From NCBI GenBank assembly GCA_964016885.1, contig OZ024743.1:61752001-61816000 (forward strand): 64,000 bases of DNA, in the 5' to 3' direction. The translations under genes were made by a program, and so were the position numbers. The notes beneath the pieces were generated by a model that saw only the letters and a list, made by a program, of their open reading frames with translations, was not told the DNA's origin and searched no databases. The stretch is from Eledone cirrhosa. Its lineage: Eukaryota. Of this stretch, positions 3,959 through 57,246 are shown piece by piece (positions within the stretch are counted from its first letter, which is position 1; each line of letters begins with the position of its first letter).

Positions 3959-5225
3959 CGAAGGAGATTCAAAAGGTTCGTGGAAAAAGTACATAACACA
4001 AACCACATGCAAGGATTTTGATTTCAATGCACCTGTACGTTCTCGTAGTAACGTGTCATAAGATGTTCTAACATGAACCCTTAAATGCATATTGCAACGC
4101 GGCGCCGCCAATCAGAAGCCAGCACCCGCTCAAGCAACATAGCCTTCATCAGGACAAACATCGAATTCATGGTGAAGCTATGGTGGAAGAGCAGCCAAAT
4201 CATTGACGCTCTAGAGCAAGTTTATAGGGACAATGCCCCCCAAAAATCAACAACCTACAAATGGATACGTCATTTTAGAAGTGGAAGAGTTGAGGTTGAT
4301 GATGATCTCCGCAGTGGCAAGACATCCACATCAGTTTGTATGGAAAACATTGATGCTGTTTGCGACCTAACTGAAAATGATAAGTGAATAACCACTGAAT
4401 CAGTAGCCGACACACTCAACATCTCCGTGGGCTCTGCACACGCAATTCTGGTGGAGAGTATGGGGCTGAGCAAGTTTTCCGCTCGATGGGTCCCAAAGCT
4501 GATGTGTCCAGATCAGCAGCAAACAATGTAGATATTTCGATGGAAATTTTGAACAAGTGGGATGACGACCCTGAAGCTTTTCTGCAGAAAATTGTAAACG
4601 GGGATGAAACGTGGCTCTACCAGTACGATCCCGAGGACAAAACTCAATCGAAGCAGTGGCTATCAGGGCTGGAGTAGACCAGTCAAAGCAAAATTGGAGA
4701 GTTCAAGACGGAAGGTGATGGCCACTATCGTCTGGGACGCACGGAGGATTTTGCTTGTTGACTTCCTCGAGAACAAGAGAATAATTACAGCTACCTATTA
4801 TGAAGGTGTTTTGAGAAAACAGGTCAAGAAAATCGAAGAAAAACGCCTGGAGAAGTTACATCAGTGTGTTCTCTTCAACCACGACAATGCACCCATTCAT
4901 GACGCTCGGCAGACACGAACTGTTTTACACGAATTTCGATGGGAAATCATCCGACATCTACCCTATTCCGACTTCTTTTTGATTCCAAACCTGAAAAAAT
5001 CATTGGAAGGTACCCATTTTCCATCAGTTGAAGATGTAAAAAAAGCTGCTTTGACATGGTTTAAATCGCATGGCCCTCAGTTTTACACAGATGGACTTAA
5101 AGGCTAGTATCAATACTTGCAGATGCGTATTGACCTAGATGGAGCATATATTGAAAAATAAACATCATAACTTAAACCGTTTTTTCCAACTGTCCTTTTA
5201 CCACGAACTTTTCGAAGCACCCTCG
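3959..5225 (+). mobile_element. Near full-length degenerate mariner (Hsmar2/irritans-like) with ~25-bp TIRs and TA flanks
   Basis: Left ta|cgaaggagattcaaaaggttcgtgg, right ccacgaacttttcgaagcaccctcg|ta. Broken transposase: RTNIEFMVKL..IIDALEQVYRDNAP, RWVP, GDETW, HDNA, YSDFF. Confidence 0.9.
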
Positions 5226-22994: not shown

Positions 22995-25900
22995 GTCGCC
23001 TCCTCCCTTCCCCCCCCCCCCCCCACCGCTTCCCAACTCATCGTCCGCACCCCCCGCGCCCCCACCATCTACTTCCTCCCCAAACTCCACAAACCCGACA
23101 ACCCCGGCCGCCCCATCGTCTCCGCTTGCAACTGCCCCACCGAACTCATCTCCGCCTTTCTCGACTCCATCCTCGCCCCCCTTGTAACCACCCTCCCCTC
23201 CCACATCTCCGATACCAACCACGCCCTGCGCCTTTTCGACTCCTTCACCTACCACCCGGCCCACAGCCCTTCCTCTTCACCCTAGACATCAATTCCCTCT
23301 ATACCGTCATCCCCCACGCCGACGGCCTACGCGCCCTCAAACACTACCTCGACCTTCGCCCCTCCCCCATTCCATCCACCCCACCCTCCTTCGCCTCGCC
23401 GAGCTGGTCCTCACCCTCAATTGTTTCTCCTTCTCGGGTGAGTTTTACCAACAGGTCACGGGGGTAGCCATGGGTACAAGAATGGGCCCGAACTATGCCA
23501 ACCTTTTTGTTGGCCATGTTGAGGCCCAAATCTTTGCCCAGTACAGCGGCCCCACGCCCGAACTGTACGGTCGTTACATTGACGACTGTATCGGAGCCAC
23601 GACCCTCACCCGAGAACAGCTCGACTCCTTTCTCTCCTTCTTCTGCTCCTTCCACCCCTCCCTCCACTTCACCACCTCTATCTCCACCACCCACGTCCAC
23701 TTCTTAGACATCTCCGTCACCTTCGACCCCTCCCACCACTCCCTCGTCACCTCCGCCTTCTTCAAACCCACCGACTCCCACTCTTACCTCGACTTCACCT
23801 CTTCCCACCCACCCACACTAAACACTCCATTCCCTACTCCCAACTCCTCAGGATCCGCCGCCTCTGTAGCTGAGATGCTGACTTCGAGTCCCAGGCCCTT
23901 TCCCTAGTCAGCCATTTCATCCGCAGAGGTTACCCCCCTCTCTCGTCCACACCGCTCTCACCCGCGCCCGTGCTGTCCACCGCTCCACCACCCTCACCCC
24001 ACGTCACCGCACACCCACCCACGTCTCCCCTTCCCCATCACCTACCGCCCCTCCCACTTACCCCTCCACCGCACCATCCGCCGCCTCTTCCGACGCCTCC
24101 GGTCCGACCCCTCCACCTCCCACATCTTCCCAACCCCACCACTCCCCTCCTTCAAACGCGCACGCAATCTCCGCACCCTCCTCGTCCACAGCTCCCCCCC
24201 CCACGCCCCCCCCCCGGTTCCTTTCCCTGTTCTAGGCCCCGCTGCACACCTGTCCCCACATCACCAACACCACCACCTTCCAGGGTCCCAACGGCCACTC
24301 TCTCTCTGTCCGGCATGCCTTCCGCTGCACCTCCTCCAACCTAGTCTACGGACATCGCTGCACCGAGTGCAGCGCGACTTACGTCGGACAGACGGGACGT
24401 CGCCTGGCGGACCGATTCACTGAGCACCTCTGGGATATTCGTCTTGGTGGTAGTTCCCCCATCGCCCGCCACTTTGGTGCCCCTGGACATTCCGCACGCC
24501 ATCTCACAGTCTGTGGCCTACTCCAATGCCACGGAACACCCGCCAATCTCCTCAGAGTCGAACAAAGAACCATCTTCATCTTACAGACCCACACTCCCCC
24601 CGGTCTGAACTCCCCACCCTTATTCCTTTAGCCCTCGACCCCCCCCCCCCTCCCCCACACACATCCCCCACTAACACCACTAACACACCCCTCCTTTTCA
24701 CCGCCCACCCCACAACTAACAATACTAACACCTCTACTCCACCCCTCATCCGACCACCCTTCCCCAACTAACATACTAACATCCCTCCCTTCTTCTCCTC
24801 CCCCCTCCTTATCACACGCACACACCCACCGGCACATATATACACGCGCTCACACTAAACACACACCCTACTACCACCACTAACCCTCACCCCCCACACC
24901 TCCATCCCACCACCCCGCAACTAACATCACTAACACCCCCTGACCCCAAGCACACGAACACACGCACCCACTTACACCACCCACCCAACACGCAACTAAC
25001 ATCACTAACACCCCCCAACCCCACGTACACGTACCCACACACCCTCGTACACCACCAACTCTACACACCCTACCACCACTAACCCCCACTCACACCTACA
25101 TTCAACCCTTTCCCCACCTCCCGTATACTAACACCCACTAACACCCCCTTCATCAAACTACACACACACCAGTACACCACACTCCCTCCATCGACCCCCA
25201 CACTCTTCTCTCCCGCTCCACCCACACCCTTTCTCCACACTCACTCATCCCACTAACACCTCTACTAATACACACACACACCCTCCTCACTCCAACTTTC
25301 ACAGCTACCCATCCTCGCCCCTTTACGATTCCACCCGACTGCTGCTATGCCCTCTGACCACCTCCCAGCACAAACAGACGCACAGCACTCCCACCGCCTT
25401 GACCACTTCCTGTTGCGCGCGCACCCCACATCTCTCCTCTTCCGACCATTTCTTCATGGAATACTCGTATGTGGAACTTGACCACCGTGGAATCTACTAA
25501 CATCATAGGAGTTTACCAACATTTCAACCACATCCTCTTACGGAATCACCTATATAACTCACCCACACACACCCCAAAAAAATTTTTTTCTCCCACACGC
25601 CACCTACACCCACAACACGCTTAAACCCCACACACACGTGCTTTCCACCACATATTTACACCTTCAGCCTCCGGATTCCTCTCCCCCCCCCGACCCCTCT
25701 ATCCACACACGCACAGACACTCCGACCTACACCCCACACACACCTCTTCCTGAACATGCAACCCCGTTCTTCCCCCAACCCTTGCTTTCACATACACACA
25801 CAAACACACACACACACGTACACCTACACACACACCACCTTCAGCCCTCCCCGCTCGGACACCCCGTCTCCCTTTCCCCACTCCACCCGCCACCACCCCT

Positions 25901-29985: not shown

Positions 29986-30151
29986 CTATGATCTTCCTTA
30001 TATACTAATACAATGAGAAAAGGGGAGCAAGGAGAAGTAAGAAAGCAAGGATAGTAAGGAGAGTATATATATATATATATATATATATGTAAATATGATA
30101 ATAATGGAGCTGCGGCGTTGCAAATGGGATACATATGAAAAAGTGAGTCCT

Positions 30152-30216
30152 TCATCAGTGACCCTCCAACCGTCCTCGGCATTTCATCGCTTTAAGGGCC
30201 ATATGCCTCAGGTTGG
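30152..30216 (-). ncRNA. Conserved 65-nt structured RNA: pseudoknot, k-turn-like loop and permuted hammerhead core (candidate ribozyme)
   Basis: ccaacc tga ggcat a tggccc ttaaagcgat gaa atgcc gag gac ggttgg a gggtca ctgatga; gap-free alignment with compensatory changes against 38262-38326 and 38834-38898. Confidence 0.75.
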
Positions 30217-30460
30217 TGCGAACAACGGCTAAAAAAAGTCGTTGGGACACGTAAACAAAGGGGACGCTAGAGTAACAACAAAAAAGTTTAAGCAACGGAA
30301 AGTGAGTAGAAATAGACAAGTCCCAGATCTCTATGAATATAAACTCTGTGAAATCGTGAACAAGAGACAAAAGACCATCAAACCTGGTTGAAATGTGAGC
30401 AAGGAAAGAATTTCGCCCAAGTTTGACGGGGGGGAAAAAAGGGAGAGAGAAAGGAGAGAA

Positions 30461-30546
30461 GAGGAAGAAGAAGAAGAAGAAGAAGAAGAAGAAGAAGAAG
30501 AAGAAGAAGAAGAAGAAGAAGAAGAAGAAGAAGAAGAAGAAGAAGA
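30461..30546. repeat. (GAA)n microsatellite inside the motif-bearing element 30089-30598
   Basis: Direct inspection. Confidence 0.95.
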
Positions 30547-30596
30547 TAAAGGGGTCTGGTCTACGAATTCGGTAAACGCAAGTTTTGTGAAGTCGC

Positions 30597-30630
<34 letters not shown>

Positions 30631-37690: not shown

Positions 37691-38150
37691 TCATATTTGT
37701 GTAATAGTATTGCCAGAATTAATAACAGAACACACTCACTGTTTGGTTGGTTTTCGCTTCTGTGTCTTTTATATCGGTTAATTTAATTTATTCGGTCCTC
37801 AATGTTGCCATTGACTGACCAACGGTCAAAAATACCGATACAATATAGACACAAACACATATATATAGTCTATCAAAGTTCTTTCGTTGCGCATCTGCAA
37901 CATCGTCAGTGGTGCTATTATCATATTTGTGTAATAGTATTGCCATAATTAATAACAGAACACACTCACTGTTTGGTTGGTTTTCGCTTCTGTGTCTTTT
38001 ATATCGGTTAATTTAATTTATTCGGTCCTCAATGTTGCCATTGACTGATCAACGGTCAAAAATACCGATACAATATAGACACAAACACATATATATAGTC
38101 TATCAAAGTTCTTTCGTTGCACATCTGCAACATCGTCAGCGGTGCTATTA
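37691..38150. repeat. 230-bp tandem duplication between (TA)n tracts
   Basis: tcatatttgtgtaatagtattgcc at 37691 and 37921; both units end ggtgctatta. Confidence 0.9.
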
Positions 38151-38188
38151 TGTTTCCTCCCGTTGCATTGTATGCTTACGCCATCTTT

Positions 38189-38222
<34 letters not shown>

Positions 38223-38223
<1 letters not shown>

Positions 38224-39043
38224 ATAAATGAAAAATTAGAAATAGAAGCCAGGACTATCCGTCATCAGTGGTCTACTACTCATCATAGGTATTTCTTTGC
38301 ATTACAGACCATATACCTCAGGCTAGAGCAATGCAATAACCAAATTAAGTTATTGGGATAAAAAGAGTTGGGTGGAGAAAGAGAGACAGATAAACAAACA
38401 CGAATGGTGAGGCAACGTAAAGAGAGGAAAAATGAGAAAATCTAGTCAATAATTCATTTTGAACATAAGAACTTGCGAATATTGACGAGAAGGCAAAAGA
38501 CACATCTTGGCCGTGCGAATGGGAGCGAGGAAAGAATTTCGTACAGTGTGGGACGATGGAGGAAATGAGAGAGAGGGTGAGTAGCAGAGAGTGAGTGAGT
38601 GAAAGTGTGAGGAAGAGGCTAGCCGAGAAAGGGTGACTAGCAAAGGGGGTGAATGAAATTAAGAGGGAGGAGAGAGAAGGGGGAGAGAGAATGAGGATAG
38701 CAGTGACGGAAGAGAAAAAGACAGGTCACAGCGAAGAGGAAAGCATATATGAATGAAAAATGGCGAGCTGTGTTGTTGCAAATAAGATATATATAATAAA
38801 TGAAAAATTAGAAATAGAAGCCAGGACTATCCGTCATCAGTGGTCTACTAGCCATCATAAGTATTTCTTCGCATTACAGACCATATACCTCTGGCTAGGG
38901 CAATGCAATAACTAAATTAAGTTATTGGAATAAAAAGAGTCGGGTGGAGAAAGAGAGACAGGTAAACAGACACGAATGGTGAGGCAACGTAAAGAGAGGA
39001 AAAAATTAGAAAATCAAGTCAATAATTCATTTTGAACATAAGA
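38223..39043 (-). mobile_element. 572-bp tandem unit (about 1.4 copies), one 65-nt structured RNA per unit (38262-38326, 38834-38898)
   Basis: aataaatgaaaaattagaaatagaagccagg at 38223 and 38795; shares blocks with 30089-30598. Confidence 0.8.
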
Positions 39044-39121
39044 ATACCCCCCCCCCCCCTACTAAAACATGTATACATTCTTTGATTAGAATGCCGTTGC
39101 AGTGTGTATATAACCTTTGTA

Positions 39122-45089: not shown

Positions 45090-46040
45090 ACGTTTGGAGT
45101 TCGAAGGCCAGAACAATGCAGGTATGGATATAGAATACAAATGCAAAAGATATTGCTGACAATTAGTCTTTTACCTTAAATTTATTTGAATATCCTTAAT
45201 TTTTGAGATAATATCTCTTCTTCGGAGGGAAGTAAAGGGGTTAATCCAGTGTTCTAATTATCTTGCGAAGTCATGCTGACAGGAAATAGTATAGAAATTC
45301 CATTCTATTTCTAATGTCAAAGAGTGAAGGTTAGGTGAATAAAGGGTTGTCTCCCTTCAAAAGGGTTTGGGCATGTATGTCTAAGTGTGTGTGGGAGAAT
45401 ACGTGAAGGTGTAAGCCATATGTGTGTGAGTATGAGAGGATATGTTTATATGTAAATGTGGAGGCTAGATGCTCTATCATGTTACAACTGGTCTATGTGT
45501 GTGTATGTGTGTGTGTGTGAGAGAATAAGTGAAGGTGTAAGCGTGCGTGTGTGTGTGTGAGATGATGCGTGGAGGTGTAAGTGTGGGGCTACGTGCTCTA
45601 TCATGTTAAAACTTGGGTGTTGAGTTCTAGTCTGTTATTGATTGGTGGTTGCGTTTTGTCTATAATTAGTGCTTCTTTAATTCTAAGATTGCCGAGGTTT
45701 CTTTCCTTAGTTTCTATCCTAACTATTATGTTTTTGTCGGTGTTTTTGCATTTCACTAGATGTTTCTTAAATGAGAAAGCGTTAGTGTTGAGGTATTCTT
45801 TTATTCTAATGTGAAGTGGTCTGGTGGTGCTACCTATGTAGAAATTGCTGCATTTGTCGCACTCTAATCTGTATACGACGTAAGCCTGGTGGCATAGGTC
45901 TGTGTCGTCGATGGGGCAGTTAGCTATCCTGCAGCGGCTGTCGTGTCTGGTGGAGTGTCTTTTGGTTAGCTGTCCGCGTAGAGAAGGTCCTGAGTGGGCC
46001 AGTTGGATATCTAGTCCCTCTCGTCTGATAGCACTGCGGA
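45090..46040 (-). mobile_element. PLE 3' fragment (GIY-YIG, 3' UTR, minimal HHR at 45194-45228)
   Basis: CHQAYVVYRLECDKCSNFYIGSTTRPLHIRIKEY...LRIKEALII...PPIN. Tail reads cct CCGAAGA a gagat att atctc AAAA ATT A agg, then AATAAA. Confidence 0.85.
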
Positions 46041-46299
46041 TGGAGCAACACGAAATGAAGTGTTTACACGTAGCCGATCTCTCAGACTTTTACGAAACAC
46101 TAAGGAGATATAGTGAATATATAGAGTAGGGTATTACTCATGCACGGAGATGCTTTAAAACAGCTAATAAAATAGGCTTACTTTATAGCATCTCCGTGCA
46201 GGAGTAGACCACTATATTGCAGGGGGTTAAAATATAGTACCTGTGCCAATAGTACCAGTCATGAACTAGAGGTTATGAAAATACAGTCTCAGTCAAGTG

Positions 46300-52289: not shown

Positions 52290-55200
52290 CACATGAATCT
52301 ATTTGGAATCTCATAAAAAATAATGGCAAGGCAGATATATATGAAAAGTGGCTAAACTCTACCCACTCAACCTCCTCAAAAAATTCCTAATAAAACCCAT
52401 CCCGAATGAATCAGAAAACCAACAAATTTTAGGGAAAAGATGGCCTTAGAAAAGTTTAAAATAGAAATAGAACTGCTGCGATTAAGAGCCAACTCCACCG
52501 AAGAAAAATTCAAGTCACTCGACCAACAGATGGAAACAGAAATCTCAAAGCACACTGAAGGCCTACTATATGAAAAAACCTTAAAACTTTGGAAAGAAAA
52601 TTGTGAGGATGAAGAACTAACATCCCTCCAGCGATGGGAAAAAAACGCCACCTGGTTCAACAACTACAAAATGGATTTCAAAAATGAACAACATACAGGT
52701 AACCCATTTTTAAAACAAACTAAAACTCACACACCACACTCATAACGAATAAAAAAAAAAGTAAGAAAACGCTCAACAGACCCCCAGCAAAGCTATGACG
52801 ATAATCCCAGAACACATAGAACCCTACTAAAAAAAAACGAATGTCCCCCAACACAAGACAGGACCCGATCCGCAGATCACAACCCACACAAAACCTATTC
52901 CAAAGCCGTAGAGCCCAACCCAAACAGAACCTGTTCCAAAATCATAGATCCAACCCACACAAAGGAACAAAATTTACAACCCGGACCATCAACAAACCGA
53001 ACCTCAATACGTCCGAAACCTCTATACAAGACCACACAACAGGGGAAATGCCATTAGTTATAATAATACCCATGAAAAAACAATTCAGAAAAATCATTTT
53101 TTAGACCAAGGCTACAGGACCCACGACACCCGGTGGCAAAAAACGATTTTGAAAAACCCAAAATAATCAATCTTTCAAATACAAACTTCTCAGCCCAACT
53201 AATTAAAATTCTCTCCAAAGGACTGAAATTCACACCAACACCACAATACTCTAACCTCAATGAGATAAATGACGATATCTCACACTTCTGTAGAAAATTA
53301 CGTCTCACATAGGAATTTTTTGACAAGGAGAATAACGACCAATCAATTGTACGGAATAAAAGCAGCTACAACATATCAAAGGGTAGGAACAGAGTTCTGG
53401 ACAAATTTGTTGACCACATAGCAACTTTTCCATACCATGAACTACCGCAACCTAAACCCAAATCCAACACGAGTCGAAGGGAATGGGAGATTATCCCTGA
53501 ACTAAAAAACAACACTGACATTGTAATTAAGGAAGCGGACAAGGGAAGTACTGTCGTCATTATGGATGCTGAACAATATAAAAATTCTATGTTCTCTCTC
53601 TTACAAGACACTAACTACTATGAAAGAGTAAAAACTACCAGCAATCAAAAACGATGACCAGATTAAATACATTCATTTGTCGATACAGGGAAGACTTAAC
53701 TAAAAACGAACGTGATTATTTAACACATTTTGAATACAAAACCAGGAACCTTTACGGACTTCCGAAGATCCACAAGTCTAAATAATTAACGATGCCTGTA
53801 AATAATCCACCTCAACCTGCGTGAACATACACTACCGCACTGACCTTAAATTAAGACCAATTGTAGTGGGCCCATAATGTGAAACACACAGACTAAGCAA
53901 CTTTATAGACATACTACTAAAACTAATTCTCAAACACATGCCAAGACTTGTAAGAGCCGATTGGACCTTTTAAACCACTTACCCAAACATGTCAACAACG
54001 ACACTATTATTGTGTCTTTCGATGTAGTGAATCTCTACACAACGATCCCACACCAATACGGACTAGAAGCAATAGGATTCTGGCTAGAAAAATATCCCAA
54101 TGAGATACCTGACAGAATAGAAAAAAGCTTCATCACCAAGGGATTAAAATCTATTTTACAGAACACCTTTTTTTATTTCGATGGCAGTACTTACAAGTAA
54201 ATATCGGGGACTGCGATGGGTGCAAAAGTCGCTCCAACTTGTGCTAACTTAGTCATGGCATACTCGGAAGTCCAGATATATAAACACTCCAAATCAAAAT
54301 ACGGATTGAACTTTCACAAATGTTTATCAGAGAATTGTAAACGCTACTTGGATGATTGTCTAATTCTTCGGTCTCACACACTCGACCAACTAAATGATTT
54401 CAAATATGTAATTACCGCCATTAATAACCACATCCAATTCACAATGGAATACTGCCAAGATAAACTCCCATTGCTGGACATCTTAATCATAAAAAAAGGA
54501 CACACATATTGAAACTCACATACACTACAAACCAACAGATTCCAAACAATACCTGCTATTCACCTACAGCCATCCAAAGCACGCGAAGACGAACATCCCT
54601 TTTAACCTAGCAAGAAGAATTTGCACATGTCTCCAATTATGAAACGCGAAATAAAAGACTTCAAGAATTAAAGGAAATTCTACTCGAAAGACAGTATCCA
54701 CCATTACTAATAAATAATGGAATAGAAAGGGCTAAAGCAATAGGCATTGATGAATTACGAAACCAGAAACAAATTCAAGGTACGCCAAATATTCTATCAT
54801 ATATCTCAACACACAACCCAAGAAATGCGGAAGCTTACAACATTATTCACAAGAACATCCCACTACTAAAACAAGACCCAAGAATGAAAAAAGCCCTTGA
54901 AACACACAAAATAATCAAAAGCAAAAGACAACCGAAATCACTAAAAACATTACTCACCAATGTCAAATTACCTACCACAAACTCACAACCAACTGGCAAA
55001 AAATGTGGTCGCTCTAATTGTGGAACCTGCACTCACCTCATTGAAGGCAACATGTATACATTTCAATCAGAACAAAATTTTGTTGTAAAAAATCACTTCA
55101 CTTGCTCATCAACAAATTTAATTAATGCCATTAAATGTAAAGGATGCAATGAAGATTATATAGGACAAACTAAACTCACAGAAACAGAATGACAATTCAT

Positions 55201-56484
55201 CGCCAACAATTACGAGACCCTACCACAAGACAGATACCTCTCAGTGCACATCTAGACATATGCGCAAGGGATAAGACACCCAAATTCCAAGTCTTCCCAT
55301 TTTATTTTTGCGCTGACAATACAACAGAACAAATACGAATAAATAAGGAAAATATGTTTATTCAAAAATATAGAGCAGCATTAAATATAGTTTAATATAC
55401 ATTATGTTAACACCATAACATACTAAACATCCAAACAGACACATACATACACACACACACACATAACACCTATATTCGAAAATAAAAACCAGAGCTAAAT
55501 AAACTTTAACATACGTTAATACTCTAACACCTTAACATGCTAACCACACCCCCACACACACATAACTCCCTCCCCCATTCTACTAACGGAATCATTTTCC
55601 TACACACACACATAAATATATATTCTCTCCGTCTTAACATGTTAACCAGACTCCCACACACACACACACACACACATATAACAGCCATACACACACATAT
55701 AACTCCCTCCGTCATTTCTACTAATAGAATCATCTTCCTACACACATAGACATACACACACACACACCAGCACACAAATACAAATACATATCTCTACTTT
55801 CTTTATTTCAATAGAAAGTCAGAATGTTTACACCCCAGCACATCAACCAATCTCACTGAACCAGAACAATTCTCCCCATCCCTTTTTTCTTTACCTTTAT
55901 CTTTTGTTTGGCACAAAATTCTCTAAATGGCTACAAAAAAATTCCCAAATACAGGCGCGATATTTAATGTACTTGTTCACGTGACAGTCATAGTTTCATT
56001 TTATAACCAATCAAATTACATTTATGAAAAAAACCTTCTTGAACCACTTTTTTTTAAATAAAAAGAAATTCAAACACAGACTGGCGCGAAAGTTGATGTG
56101 CTTATTCACATGACTGCATCACCCAACCAAATTTCACTCATATATGAAAAAACAATCTGAGCCCCCCCCCCCCCCCACACCTTTTTTTTTAAAGGTAAAT
56201 ATAATAAAAACTTTGTAACGCGAATTGGCGCGAAATTTATTATATTTATTCACATGACAGTCATCAACAAACCAAATTACTTTTCTAAAAACGTAGCATT
56301 TCGAGCCACTATTTTCCATATAAAACAGAAGTAACATTCAAACACCAACCAGATGCGAGAAAAACCACAAACCCTCCATCTCAATTCTACTTTTGAAAAG
56401 CACAAGCACTGCGAAACTGGTAAAGAAAACAAATAAATATGTTTAAAAAGACTGCAGTTGCATTTTCGATTTCATCTTTTTTCT

Positions 56485-56488: not shown

Positions 56489-56519
<31 letters not shown>

Positions 56520-56522
<3 letters not shown>

Positions 56523-57246
56523 AAACAAATTATAAACGTAAACATGTAAGTATGTTTTTGAAACGGTGCGCGAGTTTGAAATTAGAAATTAGAAATTATA
56601 AGCCTTCACCGTATTTTAGACTAAAGAAATTTCTAGCCTGATAGTGGGGTTTATAACCCTCGGAGAAATGGAAAAAAAGATGAGTGTTGCCGTACATGGG
56701 AGCCGAACCCACATCTTTGATTATCCAGAACACTGTGCTACCATTACACTAATACACATCCCATCTCCTCCCATTCGAATTAGAAGCTATGAACTTAGCA
56801 AGTGAATGATAAACAAGCAAATTATAAACGTAAACATGTTTTTGAAACGGTGCGCGAGTTTGAAATTAAGATGTGGGTTCGACTCCCATGTACGGCAACA
56901 CTCATCTTTTTCGATTTCTCCGAGGGTTATAAACCCCACTATCGGGCTAGAAATTTCTTTAGTCTAAAATACGGTGAAAGCTTATAATTTCTAATTTCTA
57001 ATTTCAAACTCGCGCACCGTTTCAAAAACATACTTACATGTTTACGTTTATAATTTGCTTGTTTATCATTCACTTGCTAAGTTCATAGCTTCTAATTCGA
57101 ATGGAAGGAGATGGGATGTGTATTGGTGTAATGGTAGCACAGTGGTCTGGATAACCAAAGATGTGGGTTCGACTCCCATGTACGGCAACACTCATCTTTT
57201 TCCATTTCTCCGAGACATTTCTTTAGTCTAAAATACGGTGAAAGCT

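Follow-up and report, generated by a model that had tools for sequence, protein, structure and literature searches.

Metazoan non-LTR (long terminal repeat) retrozymes are non-coding head-to-tail repeats of low GC content that carry one hammerhead per unit, range from monomers to multimers, co-occur with Penelope-like elements (PLEs) and have been proposed to originate from the pseudo-LTRs of PLEs (PMC7229834; bioRxiv 10.64898/2026.07.22.740005; published work is cited here from excerpts throughout). An insertion with a 572-bp unit resembles them in all these respects. It lies at 38223-39044 of a 64,000-nt stretch of Eledone cirrhosa DNA (GenBank assembly GCA_964016885.1, contig OZ024743.1, forward-strand positions 61,752,001 to 61,816,000), which we call the window and whose own numbering is used below. 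The units of its subfamilies measure 445-806 nt, compared with 150-450 nt (PMC7229834) or up to 972 nt (bioRxiv 10.64898/2026.07.22.740005) for retrozymes, whose ribozyme is of type I, whereas the motif of the element is not (PMC7229834). The element, known here from DNA alone, acts like a non-LTR retrozyme but lacks the type I hammerhead of the published definition. The proposal of a retrozyme-like family, made in an earlier sequence-only reading, stands as far as the dispersed, non-coding, head-to-tail organization and the PLE-type insertion are concerned, and falls on that definition. We interpret the insertion, with moderate confidence, as a 1.44-unit copy of a high-copy, non-autonomous PLE-type repeat with a knotted, core-opened hammerhead that probably came from Naiad PLEs.

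The motif itself is best compared with type-SGC hammerheads, with which it shares the order cut site-GAAA-CUGAnGA (S-G-C), all core bases, the crossing of stems I and III, and a short connection between stem I and the strand that leads into GAAA (PMC10085705). Such ribozymes have been published from metatranscriptomes only, not in genomes of known organisms (PMC10085705). In types SGC and CSG, a full stem II lies between the C and G blocks, whereas the motif has at most one pair there, continued by an upstream strand; "block C," assumed to be unbroken by Eckert et al., is opened by this strand (PMC10085705). Stem III of the motif is capped by a kink turn (k-turn), and the word "kink" is absent from the supplement of PMC10085705 as excerpted. 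Retrozyme surveys have relied on type I/III descriptors (PMC7229834; bioRxiv 10.64898/2026.07.22.740005) and would therefore miss an S-G-C motif.

PLE insertions are described with an optional 30-40 nt tail at one end, partial tandems and inverted 5'-truncated copies (PMC8557442), and two internal start sites for the reverse transcriptase (RT) together with priming on both strands explain such ends in the Poseidon PLE (PMC11167929). Naiad PLEs share with the element their (TA)n targets, partial tandems, inverted 5'-truncated copies and a one-sided tail (PMC8557442), while the feature that makes Naiads autonomous, an open reading frame (ORF) with an N-terminal GIY-YIG domain and RT, is absent from the 572-bp unit. 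Poseidon of Anolis has, like the element, two internal RT start sites bounding an optional tail downstream of the hammerhead, priming on both DNA strands and AT-rich targets; it is autonomous with a canonical hammerhead, and the element is neither autonomous nor equipped with one (PMC11167929). A literature search, thin on subscription journals, found the motif reported neither from an animal genome nor from Naiads, and the excerpted main text of a 2026 octopus repeat annotation makes no mention of hammerhead, ribozyme, retrozyme or Naiad.

Structure and Distribution of the Element

The insertion, 822 bp long and minus-strand in RNA sense, consists of one 572-bp unit plus 250 bp of the next. 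Comparison of the sequence with itself gives 221/260 matches at lag 572, against 73-98 at 14 neighboring lags, and BLAST aligns 38223-38471 with 38795-39044 at 94.4% identity over 250 nt, so that the two unit copies diverge by 5.6%. A (TA)n target tract (38189-38223) borders the insertion on the left only, at its fixed 3' end (38223); the truncated 5' end (39044) has no (TA)n. The minus strand bears two hammerhead-core motifs at a spacing of exactly 572 bp. The sequence-only reading had described 1.4 tandem units starting at (TA)n with one permuted motif in each, and these measurements bear it out. The predicted cut-to-cut monomer (38312-38883, minus strand, 572 nt) would be U/C-rich with 41% GC, and the longest ATG-initiated ORF of the unit reaches 19 aa on the RNA-sense strand and 57 aa on the opposite one.

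Across the 3.0-Gb genome, a first look yielded 2,929 candidates of the family to which this insertion belongs (family A) and 1,959 of a second one (family B). A pattern running from GAAA to CUGAnGA has 13,034 exact matches, compared with 8 for its reversed control; 354 of them also match the family A letters exactly. As the k-turn bulge and GA pairs were written into this pattern, the count gives no independent support for the k-turn. A consecutive sample of 91 motifs contains at least six subfamilies, and a pattern leaving out families A and B has 2 matches in the genome. Family A is the older one, with a mean identity of 92.8% to its majority sequence and an intact core in 34 of 41 similarity-selected copies. 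Family B is young: the top 29 matches to its window copy are 98.7% identical to it, and in a 9-unit array with TA runs on its flanks, six of the eight further units differ from the first by 0-2 nt over 290 positions. The last two units differ at 36 and 29 positions in this ungapped comparison, probably owing to an indel. Three contig sets of one sample also contain the family, with TA-run loose ends at 38745; this may be the source sample, and the sets are not counted as support. Among sequencing runs, none of RNA was listed as containing the family.

The family B copy in the window (30089-30598, minus strand) spans 0.7 unit with (TA)n on both sides and one motif, whose cut is predicted at 30202|30201. 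It is 70.8% identical to the 38-kb element over 65 nt at the motif, and an array of its family shows 61.7% identity to the 38-kb element over 444 nt. The two copies had been read as starting at different points of the unit. Their ends do differ, but each falls on one of two fixed 3' end sites and not on an arbitrary point: the 30-kb copy ends at the long site, 113 nt past the predicted cut, and the 38-kb copy at the short site, at 89 nt. The difference is therefore not a random breakpoint of a circle.

The two sites become evident in an end map of 85 family A loci picked by motif, which comprises 138 segments of at least 84% identity (145 before this filter). In RNA sense, 60 segments end 66-100 nt past the predicted cut, 58 end at 128-146 nt and 20 elsewhere, and a TA run follows 83 of the 118 ends at the fixed sites. 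The 5' ends are scattered over the entire unit. Varying breakpoints among genomic copies are thus found at the 5' side, whereas the 3' ends are fixed at two sites in 118 of 138 segments. In most head-to-head pairs (23/35), a long end meets a short one, and the two-site pattern recurs in other families of the 91-motif sample. Twenty-nine of the 145 segments exceed one unit, all continuing into the same unit, and one exceeds 1.5 units. Two complete motifs are present in about 5 of 118 segments, the window copy being among these rare ones, so that the predicted monomer could come from few loci. Target-site duplications are unreadable inside (TA)n. Many 5' ends stop at an internal TA tract, which gives inserts of nearly exactly one unit.

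The optional 50-nt "tail" between the two sites corresponds to 38745-38794 (minus strand) in the window copy, with the long site at 38745 and the short site at about 38787-38795. An internal ATATAT, similar to the (TA)n target, underlies both sites and suggests homology-assisted priming; for Poseidon, in contrast, priming has been reported without target homology (PMC11167929).

Fixed 3' ends with an optional tail, 5' truncation, partial tandems and inverted copies are all marks of a non-autonomous PLE. Same-sense PLE coding sequence adjoins the motif at none of 300 loci, and any PLE protein match occurs at two of them (one on the opposite strand, one of 20 aa). The unit is therefore not just the 3' untranslated region (UTR) of a coding PLE. 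We are confident that the element is a non-coding, non-autonomous PLE-type retroelement.

Predicted Ribozyme Fold

Each unit presents the blocks in the order cut site-GAAA-CUGAUGA. In our model, the fold comprises stem I, stem III, a 6-bp helix beyond the k-turn, a 4-bp a/a' helix and one cross-core pair, the strand before GAAA pairing with the upstream strand (a/a') in place of the canonical stem II partner. The complete right-hand copy was placed by coordinates and covariation at 38833-38903 on the minus strand. Strand a (38903-38900) faces a' (38872-38869), the k-turn helix joins 38898-38893 to 38853-38848, stem III joins 38889-38885 to 38864-38860, and stem I joins 38883-38877 to 38847-38841. 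GAAA occupies 38867-38864 and CUGAUGA 38840-38834, and the cut is predicted after A38884 (38884|38883). The left-hand copy (38261-38331, minus strand) has the same layout and an intact core, with a predicted cut after A38312 (38312|38311); private changes at 38280-38279 break 2 of its 6 k-turn helix pairs. Both cut positions are the same as those predicted earlier.

Covariation was assessed in 14 hand-picked representatives. Pairing is observed in 95% of 322 cells, a value reached by 0 of 500 shuffles, with slid controls at 32-48%. Eleven of the 23 pairs change on both sides, including 5/7 in stem I, 1/5 in stem III and 3/6 in the outer k-turn helix, and the covarying stems span at least seven subfamilies. 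The core bases are invariant in all 14 sequences, as is the k-turn pattern of a 3-nt bulge, tandem G.A/A.G and flanking helices, the kinking itself being predicted. Of 218 copies, 216 have A or C at the cut site and one has G. In 145 of 164 copies, the nucleotide that follows CUGAnGA forms a pair with the one that precedes GAAA, using four pair types. At the 3b.3n position of the k-turn, a Watson-Crick pair occurs in 3 of 218 copies, and 134 of 218 fit the "3b=C or 3n=G" rule for self-folding (PMC4382518).

Two other readings of the motif were rejected. A classical type I hammerhead is ruled out, as no GAAA follows CUGAUGA, and where a canonical stem II would join the C and G blocks, pairing amounts to 35.7% over 5 positions, the first pair alone holding. 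Rfam gives no hammerhead in the window at the gathering threshold or at E<=5. On this model, the motif is predicted to be a hammerhead that resembles type SGC but falls outside that type, and we consider it likely that, at the family level, it would cut in vitro.

Traces of cleavage may be sought in the 5' ends of genomic copies. Among the motif-selected segments, 5' ends occur at 0.0022 per nucleotide in the body of the unit, 0.0063 in the first predicted cut zone and 0.021 in the second. In a tail-selected set of 93 segments, 10 of 36 5' ends fall at +1 to +17, compared with 4.4 expected (p=0.009). As a sign of cleavage in vivo, this footprint is suggestive only.

Naiad Elements and Candidate Helpers

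Naiads are reported to target (TA)n and to be without canonical hammerheads, although a "core" or an unexplained "half core" is listed for some (PMC8557442). Among 54 published Naiad consensus ends, read by eye from excerpts, nine have their blocks arranged as site-GAAA-CUGAnGA, with one strand of stem II lying upstream (Obim, Ovul, Amil, Aacu, Anas and four without a header in view), and the two octopus ends also have the same k-turn. Six more (Nbra 1-3, Hcon and two without a header in view) follow C-S-G, which is cyclically equivalent, and have an ordinary stem II, bringing the total to 15 of 54; several ambiguous excerpts, among them Bfor, Esco and a spider, were not counted. In the nine Naiad ends with the upstream strand, its pairing extends as far as GAAA, whereas the element spares one base for the base after CUGAnGA. 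The nematode Naiads, with their C-S-G order and normal stem II, have the type-CSG form (PMC8557442, supplement), of which two natural sequences only have been published (PMC10085705).

Naiad-derived patterns found little in the Eledone genome. Two of them, one taken from the octopus Naiad ribozyme, gave 0 matches, and a third gave as many as its control (3), two of its matches being decayed Naiad-like RTs. The Naiad ancestry of the fold is argued from other species, because the decayed Naiads of the Eledone genome show no readable motif at their 3' ends. With this provision, we regard inheritance of the fold from Naiad elements as quite probable, judging from the shared block order and upstream strand.

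Autonomous PLEs occur in the same genome as the element, and their condition differs sharply between groups. The Naiad-like RTs found are all decayed: one search returned 115 matches with no open frame above 254 aa, and another 109 matches, likewise decayed. By eye, one of them resembles the octopus Naiad protein. The endonuclease is C-terminal in 20 of the 20 long-ORF GIY-YIG regions fetched, and we take these PLEs to be Neptune-like from a reading of their cysteine linker. They have ORFs of 844-1096 aa in copies that are 94-99% identical, carry classical or variant type I hammerhead cores, and in three families possess two (TA)n end sites 49-66 nt apart. One Neptune-like family shows a low-complexity 20-nt likeness between its 3' ends and those of the element. 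Cephalopod Naiads have also been described as long inactive (PMC8557442). A young parasite with a Naiad-type fold in a genome without a live Naiad suggests a switch of helper, although an intact Naiad could have been missed. We lean slightly toward a C-terminal-endonuclease, Neptune-like PLE rather than a Naiad as the present helper. An autonomous partner bearing the motif was found neither among 50 GIY-YIG loci nor among 25 Naiad-like loci. A relaxed core scanner applied in this search overlooked the variant type I cores of GIY-YIG PLEs and is hence insensitive.

In the 3' UTRs of several young Neptune-like families (L123, L135, L139 and L141), UUGAUAA or UUGAAAA replaces CUGAnGA and is followed by a hairpin and GAAACCGGU. 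These hammerhead-like regions may be variant or dead cores in active elements.

Proposed Mechanism and Alternatives

The following scheme would account for these features. A PLE protein acting in trans would nick (TA)n DNA, and reverse transcription would start from either of two internal sites, which lie 89 and 139 nt past the predicted cut. If both strands are primed, inverted pairs that combine a long end with a short one would result. The RT would then pass back through the motif, often into a second unit, which implies copying from a multimer left uncut or from a ligated circle. A linear template of about 1.2 units would fit family A for the most part, and the arrays of nine near-identical units in family B would fit rolling-circle copying. 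The ribozyme would trim the 5' end of the transcript, and the rare copies with two complete motifs may release a monomer that could be circularized. By this model, the chance that an RNA circle exists in vivo falls a little short of even. We find it doubtful that all parts of a broader proposal hold together, namely, that there is a class of retrozymes whose core-opened hammerhead falls outside the six published permutations, that this is the ribozyme presumed absent from Naiads, that it has outlived the parent Naiad here, and that it spreads as an RNA circle copied by unrelated Neptune-like PLE proteins.

Several observations weigh against the preferred interpretation. Canonical stem II, needed for activity in type-SGC ribozymes (PMC10085705), is absent beyond one pair, which in family A is mostly C.A, and the substitute a/a' helix has just 4 bp, a single one of which shows changes on both sides. 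ViennaRNA favors an alternative 9-bp register in both window copies, and folding z-scores are around 0 when folding without pseudoknots. The 14 representatives are kin, so the shuffle control overstates the significance of the covariation. The 3b.3n position is U.U in 76 of 218 copies, outside the self-folding rule. Folded as a circle, the monomer (the window copy being 4.5% diverged) appears weakly structured, with 37% paired and a z-score of -2.0 against 40 shuffles, compared with the highly self-paired retrozyme circles of 170-400 nt (PMC7229834). No family copy joined to a helper was found, and no motif is readable at the 3' ends of the decayed Naiads of this genome. The excess of 5' ends after the cut is broad (+1 to +16) and could reflect RT stalling; once six segments shared with the first sample are removed from the tail-selected set, it drops to 6 of 30 against 3.6 expected (p=0.14). 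Of 54 tail-selected segments, 44 continue past the predicted cut, and Poseidon inserts in vitro without hammerhead cleavage (PMC11167929).

Some of these points feed the alternative that survives best, a PLE-type element copied only from linear read-through and forming no circle, in which the fold acts as a structural or protein-binding signal or as a slow, protein-assisted cutter. Passage of most segments through the predicted cut, the sharp stop of family A near 1.2 units and the reduced stem II would all follow. Multimers can also be produced by template jumping. In Poseidon, hammerhead cleavage is both dispensable and protein-assisted (PMC11167929). Such an element would, however, leave the near-complete avoidance of G at the cut site and the invariant core with covarying stems without a clear reason. 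Among the motif-selected segments, the density of 5' ends rises 3-fold in the first predicted cut zone and 10-fold in the second, and the near-identity of most units in the 9-unit array also runs counter to purely linear copying. On balance, we consider this alternative unlikely.

A second possibility retains the preferred interpretation in all but the helper, which would still be a Naiad, either of an intact lineage overlooked by assembly or searches or very recently dead. The Naiad-type fold and the preference of Naiads for (TA)n agree with it, as does the fact that the genome searches, started from decayed queries, scored the best 131-150 candidates. Yet three kinds of search gave only decayed remnants of 28-79% identity, the octopus Naiad ribozyme pattern had no match, the published inactivity of cephalopod Naiads points the same way (PMC8557442), and young intact Neptune-like PLEs share both the target and the two-site ends. 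A Naiad helper is accordingly judged improbable. Finally, that the 1.4 units represent a DNA-level tandem duplication, a satellite or the truncated 3' end of a coding PLE, with the motif incidental, is very improbable: the adjacent 230-bp tandem does represent such a PLE 3' end and the two unit copies have diverged, but the copies are dispersed with common fixed 3' ends and inversions, the longer segments continue into the same unit, no PLE protein match at the 300 loci is both same-sense and substantial, and covariation extends across the subfamilies.

For the preferred interpretation, in which the repeat carries a core-opened hammerhead probably of Naiad origin, much depends on cleavage. If the motif cuts, non-circularly permuted hammerheads would be present at more than 13,000 places in one animal genome, beyond metatranscriptomes; the statement that Naiads lack hammerheads would be a search artefact; the hammerhead core would tolerate a break between CUGAnGA and stem II; and standard retrozyme surveys would overlook a whole class. 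A ribozyme kept in a parasite after the death of its parent family would also make the role of hammerheads in PLEs directly testable, with a construct of about 75 nt. For the carrier, the present analysis adds the two-site end map, the corrected account of the "different start" and the contrast between dead Naiads and live Neptune-like PLEs.

Neighboring Features

The 230-bp tandem next to the insertion (37691-38187, minus strand) is the 3' end of a separate coding PLE family, with 90% identity over 239 nt to a region 243 nt past the GIY-YIG ORF in L124. It contains a CUGACGA-hairpin-GAAA core in the classical order, for which the cut site could not be placed. A near full-length, frameshifted C-terminal GIY-YIG PLE occupies 52362-55392 (plus strand), with 67-91% protein identity to L123, and the RT-endonuclease region of a more distant, decayed PLE is found at 23055-24580 (plus strand). 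At 45604-46089 (minus strand), a 5'-truncated PLE end comprises, in this order, a GIY-YIG ORF, a decayed type I core and (TA)n. A tRNA-like Rfam match (57120-57184, plus strand, 38.1 bits) sits in a nest of 97-98% inverted repeats at 56517-57201 and is possibly a short interspersed element. Fragments of long interspersed elements (zf-RVT, RVT_1) and of a Tc1/mariner transposase lie at 923-2653 and 4598-5104 (plus strand).
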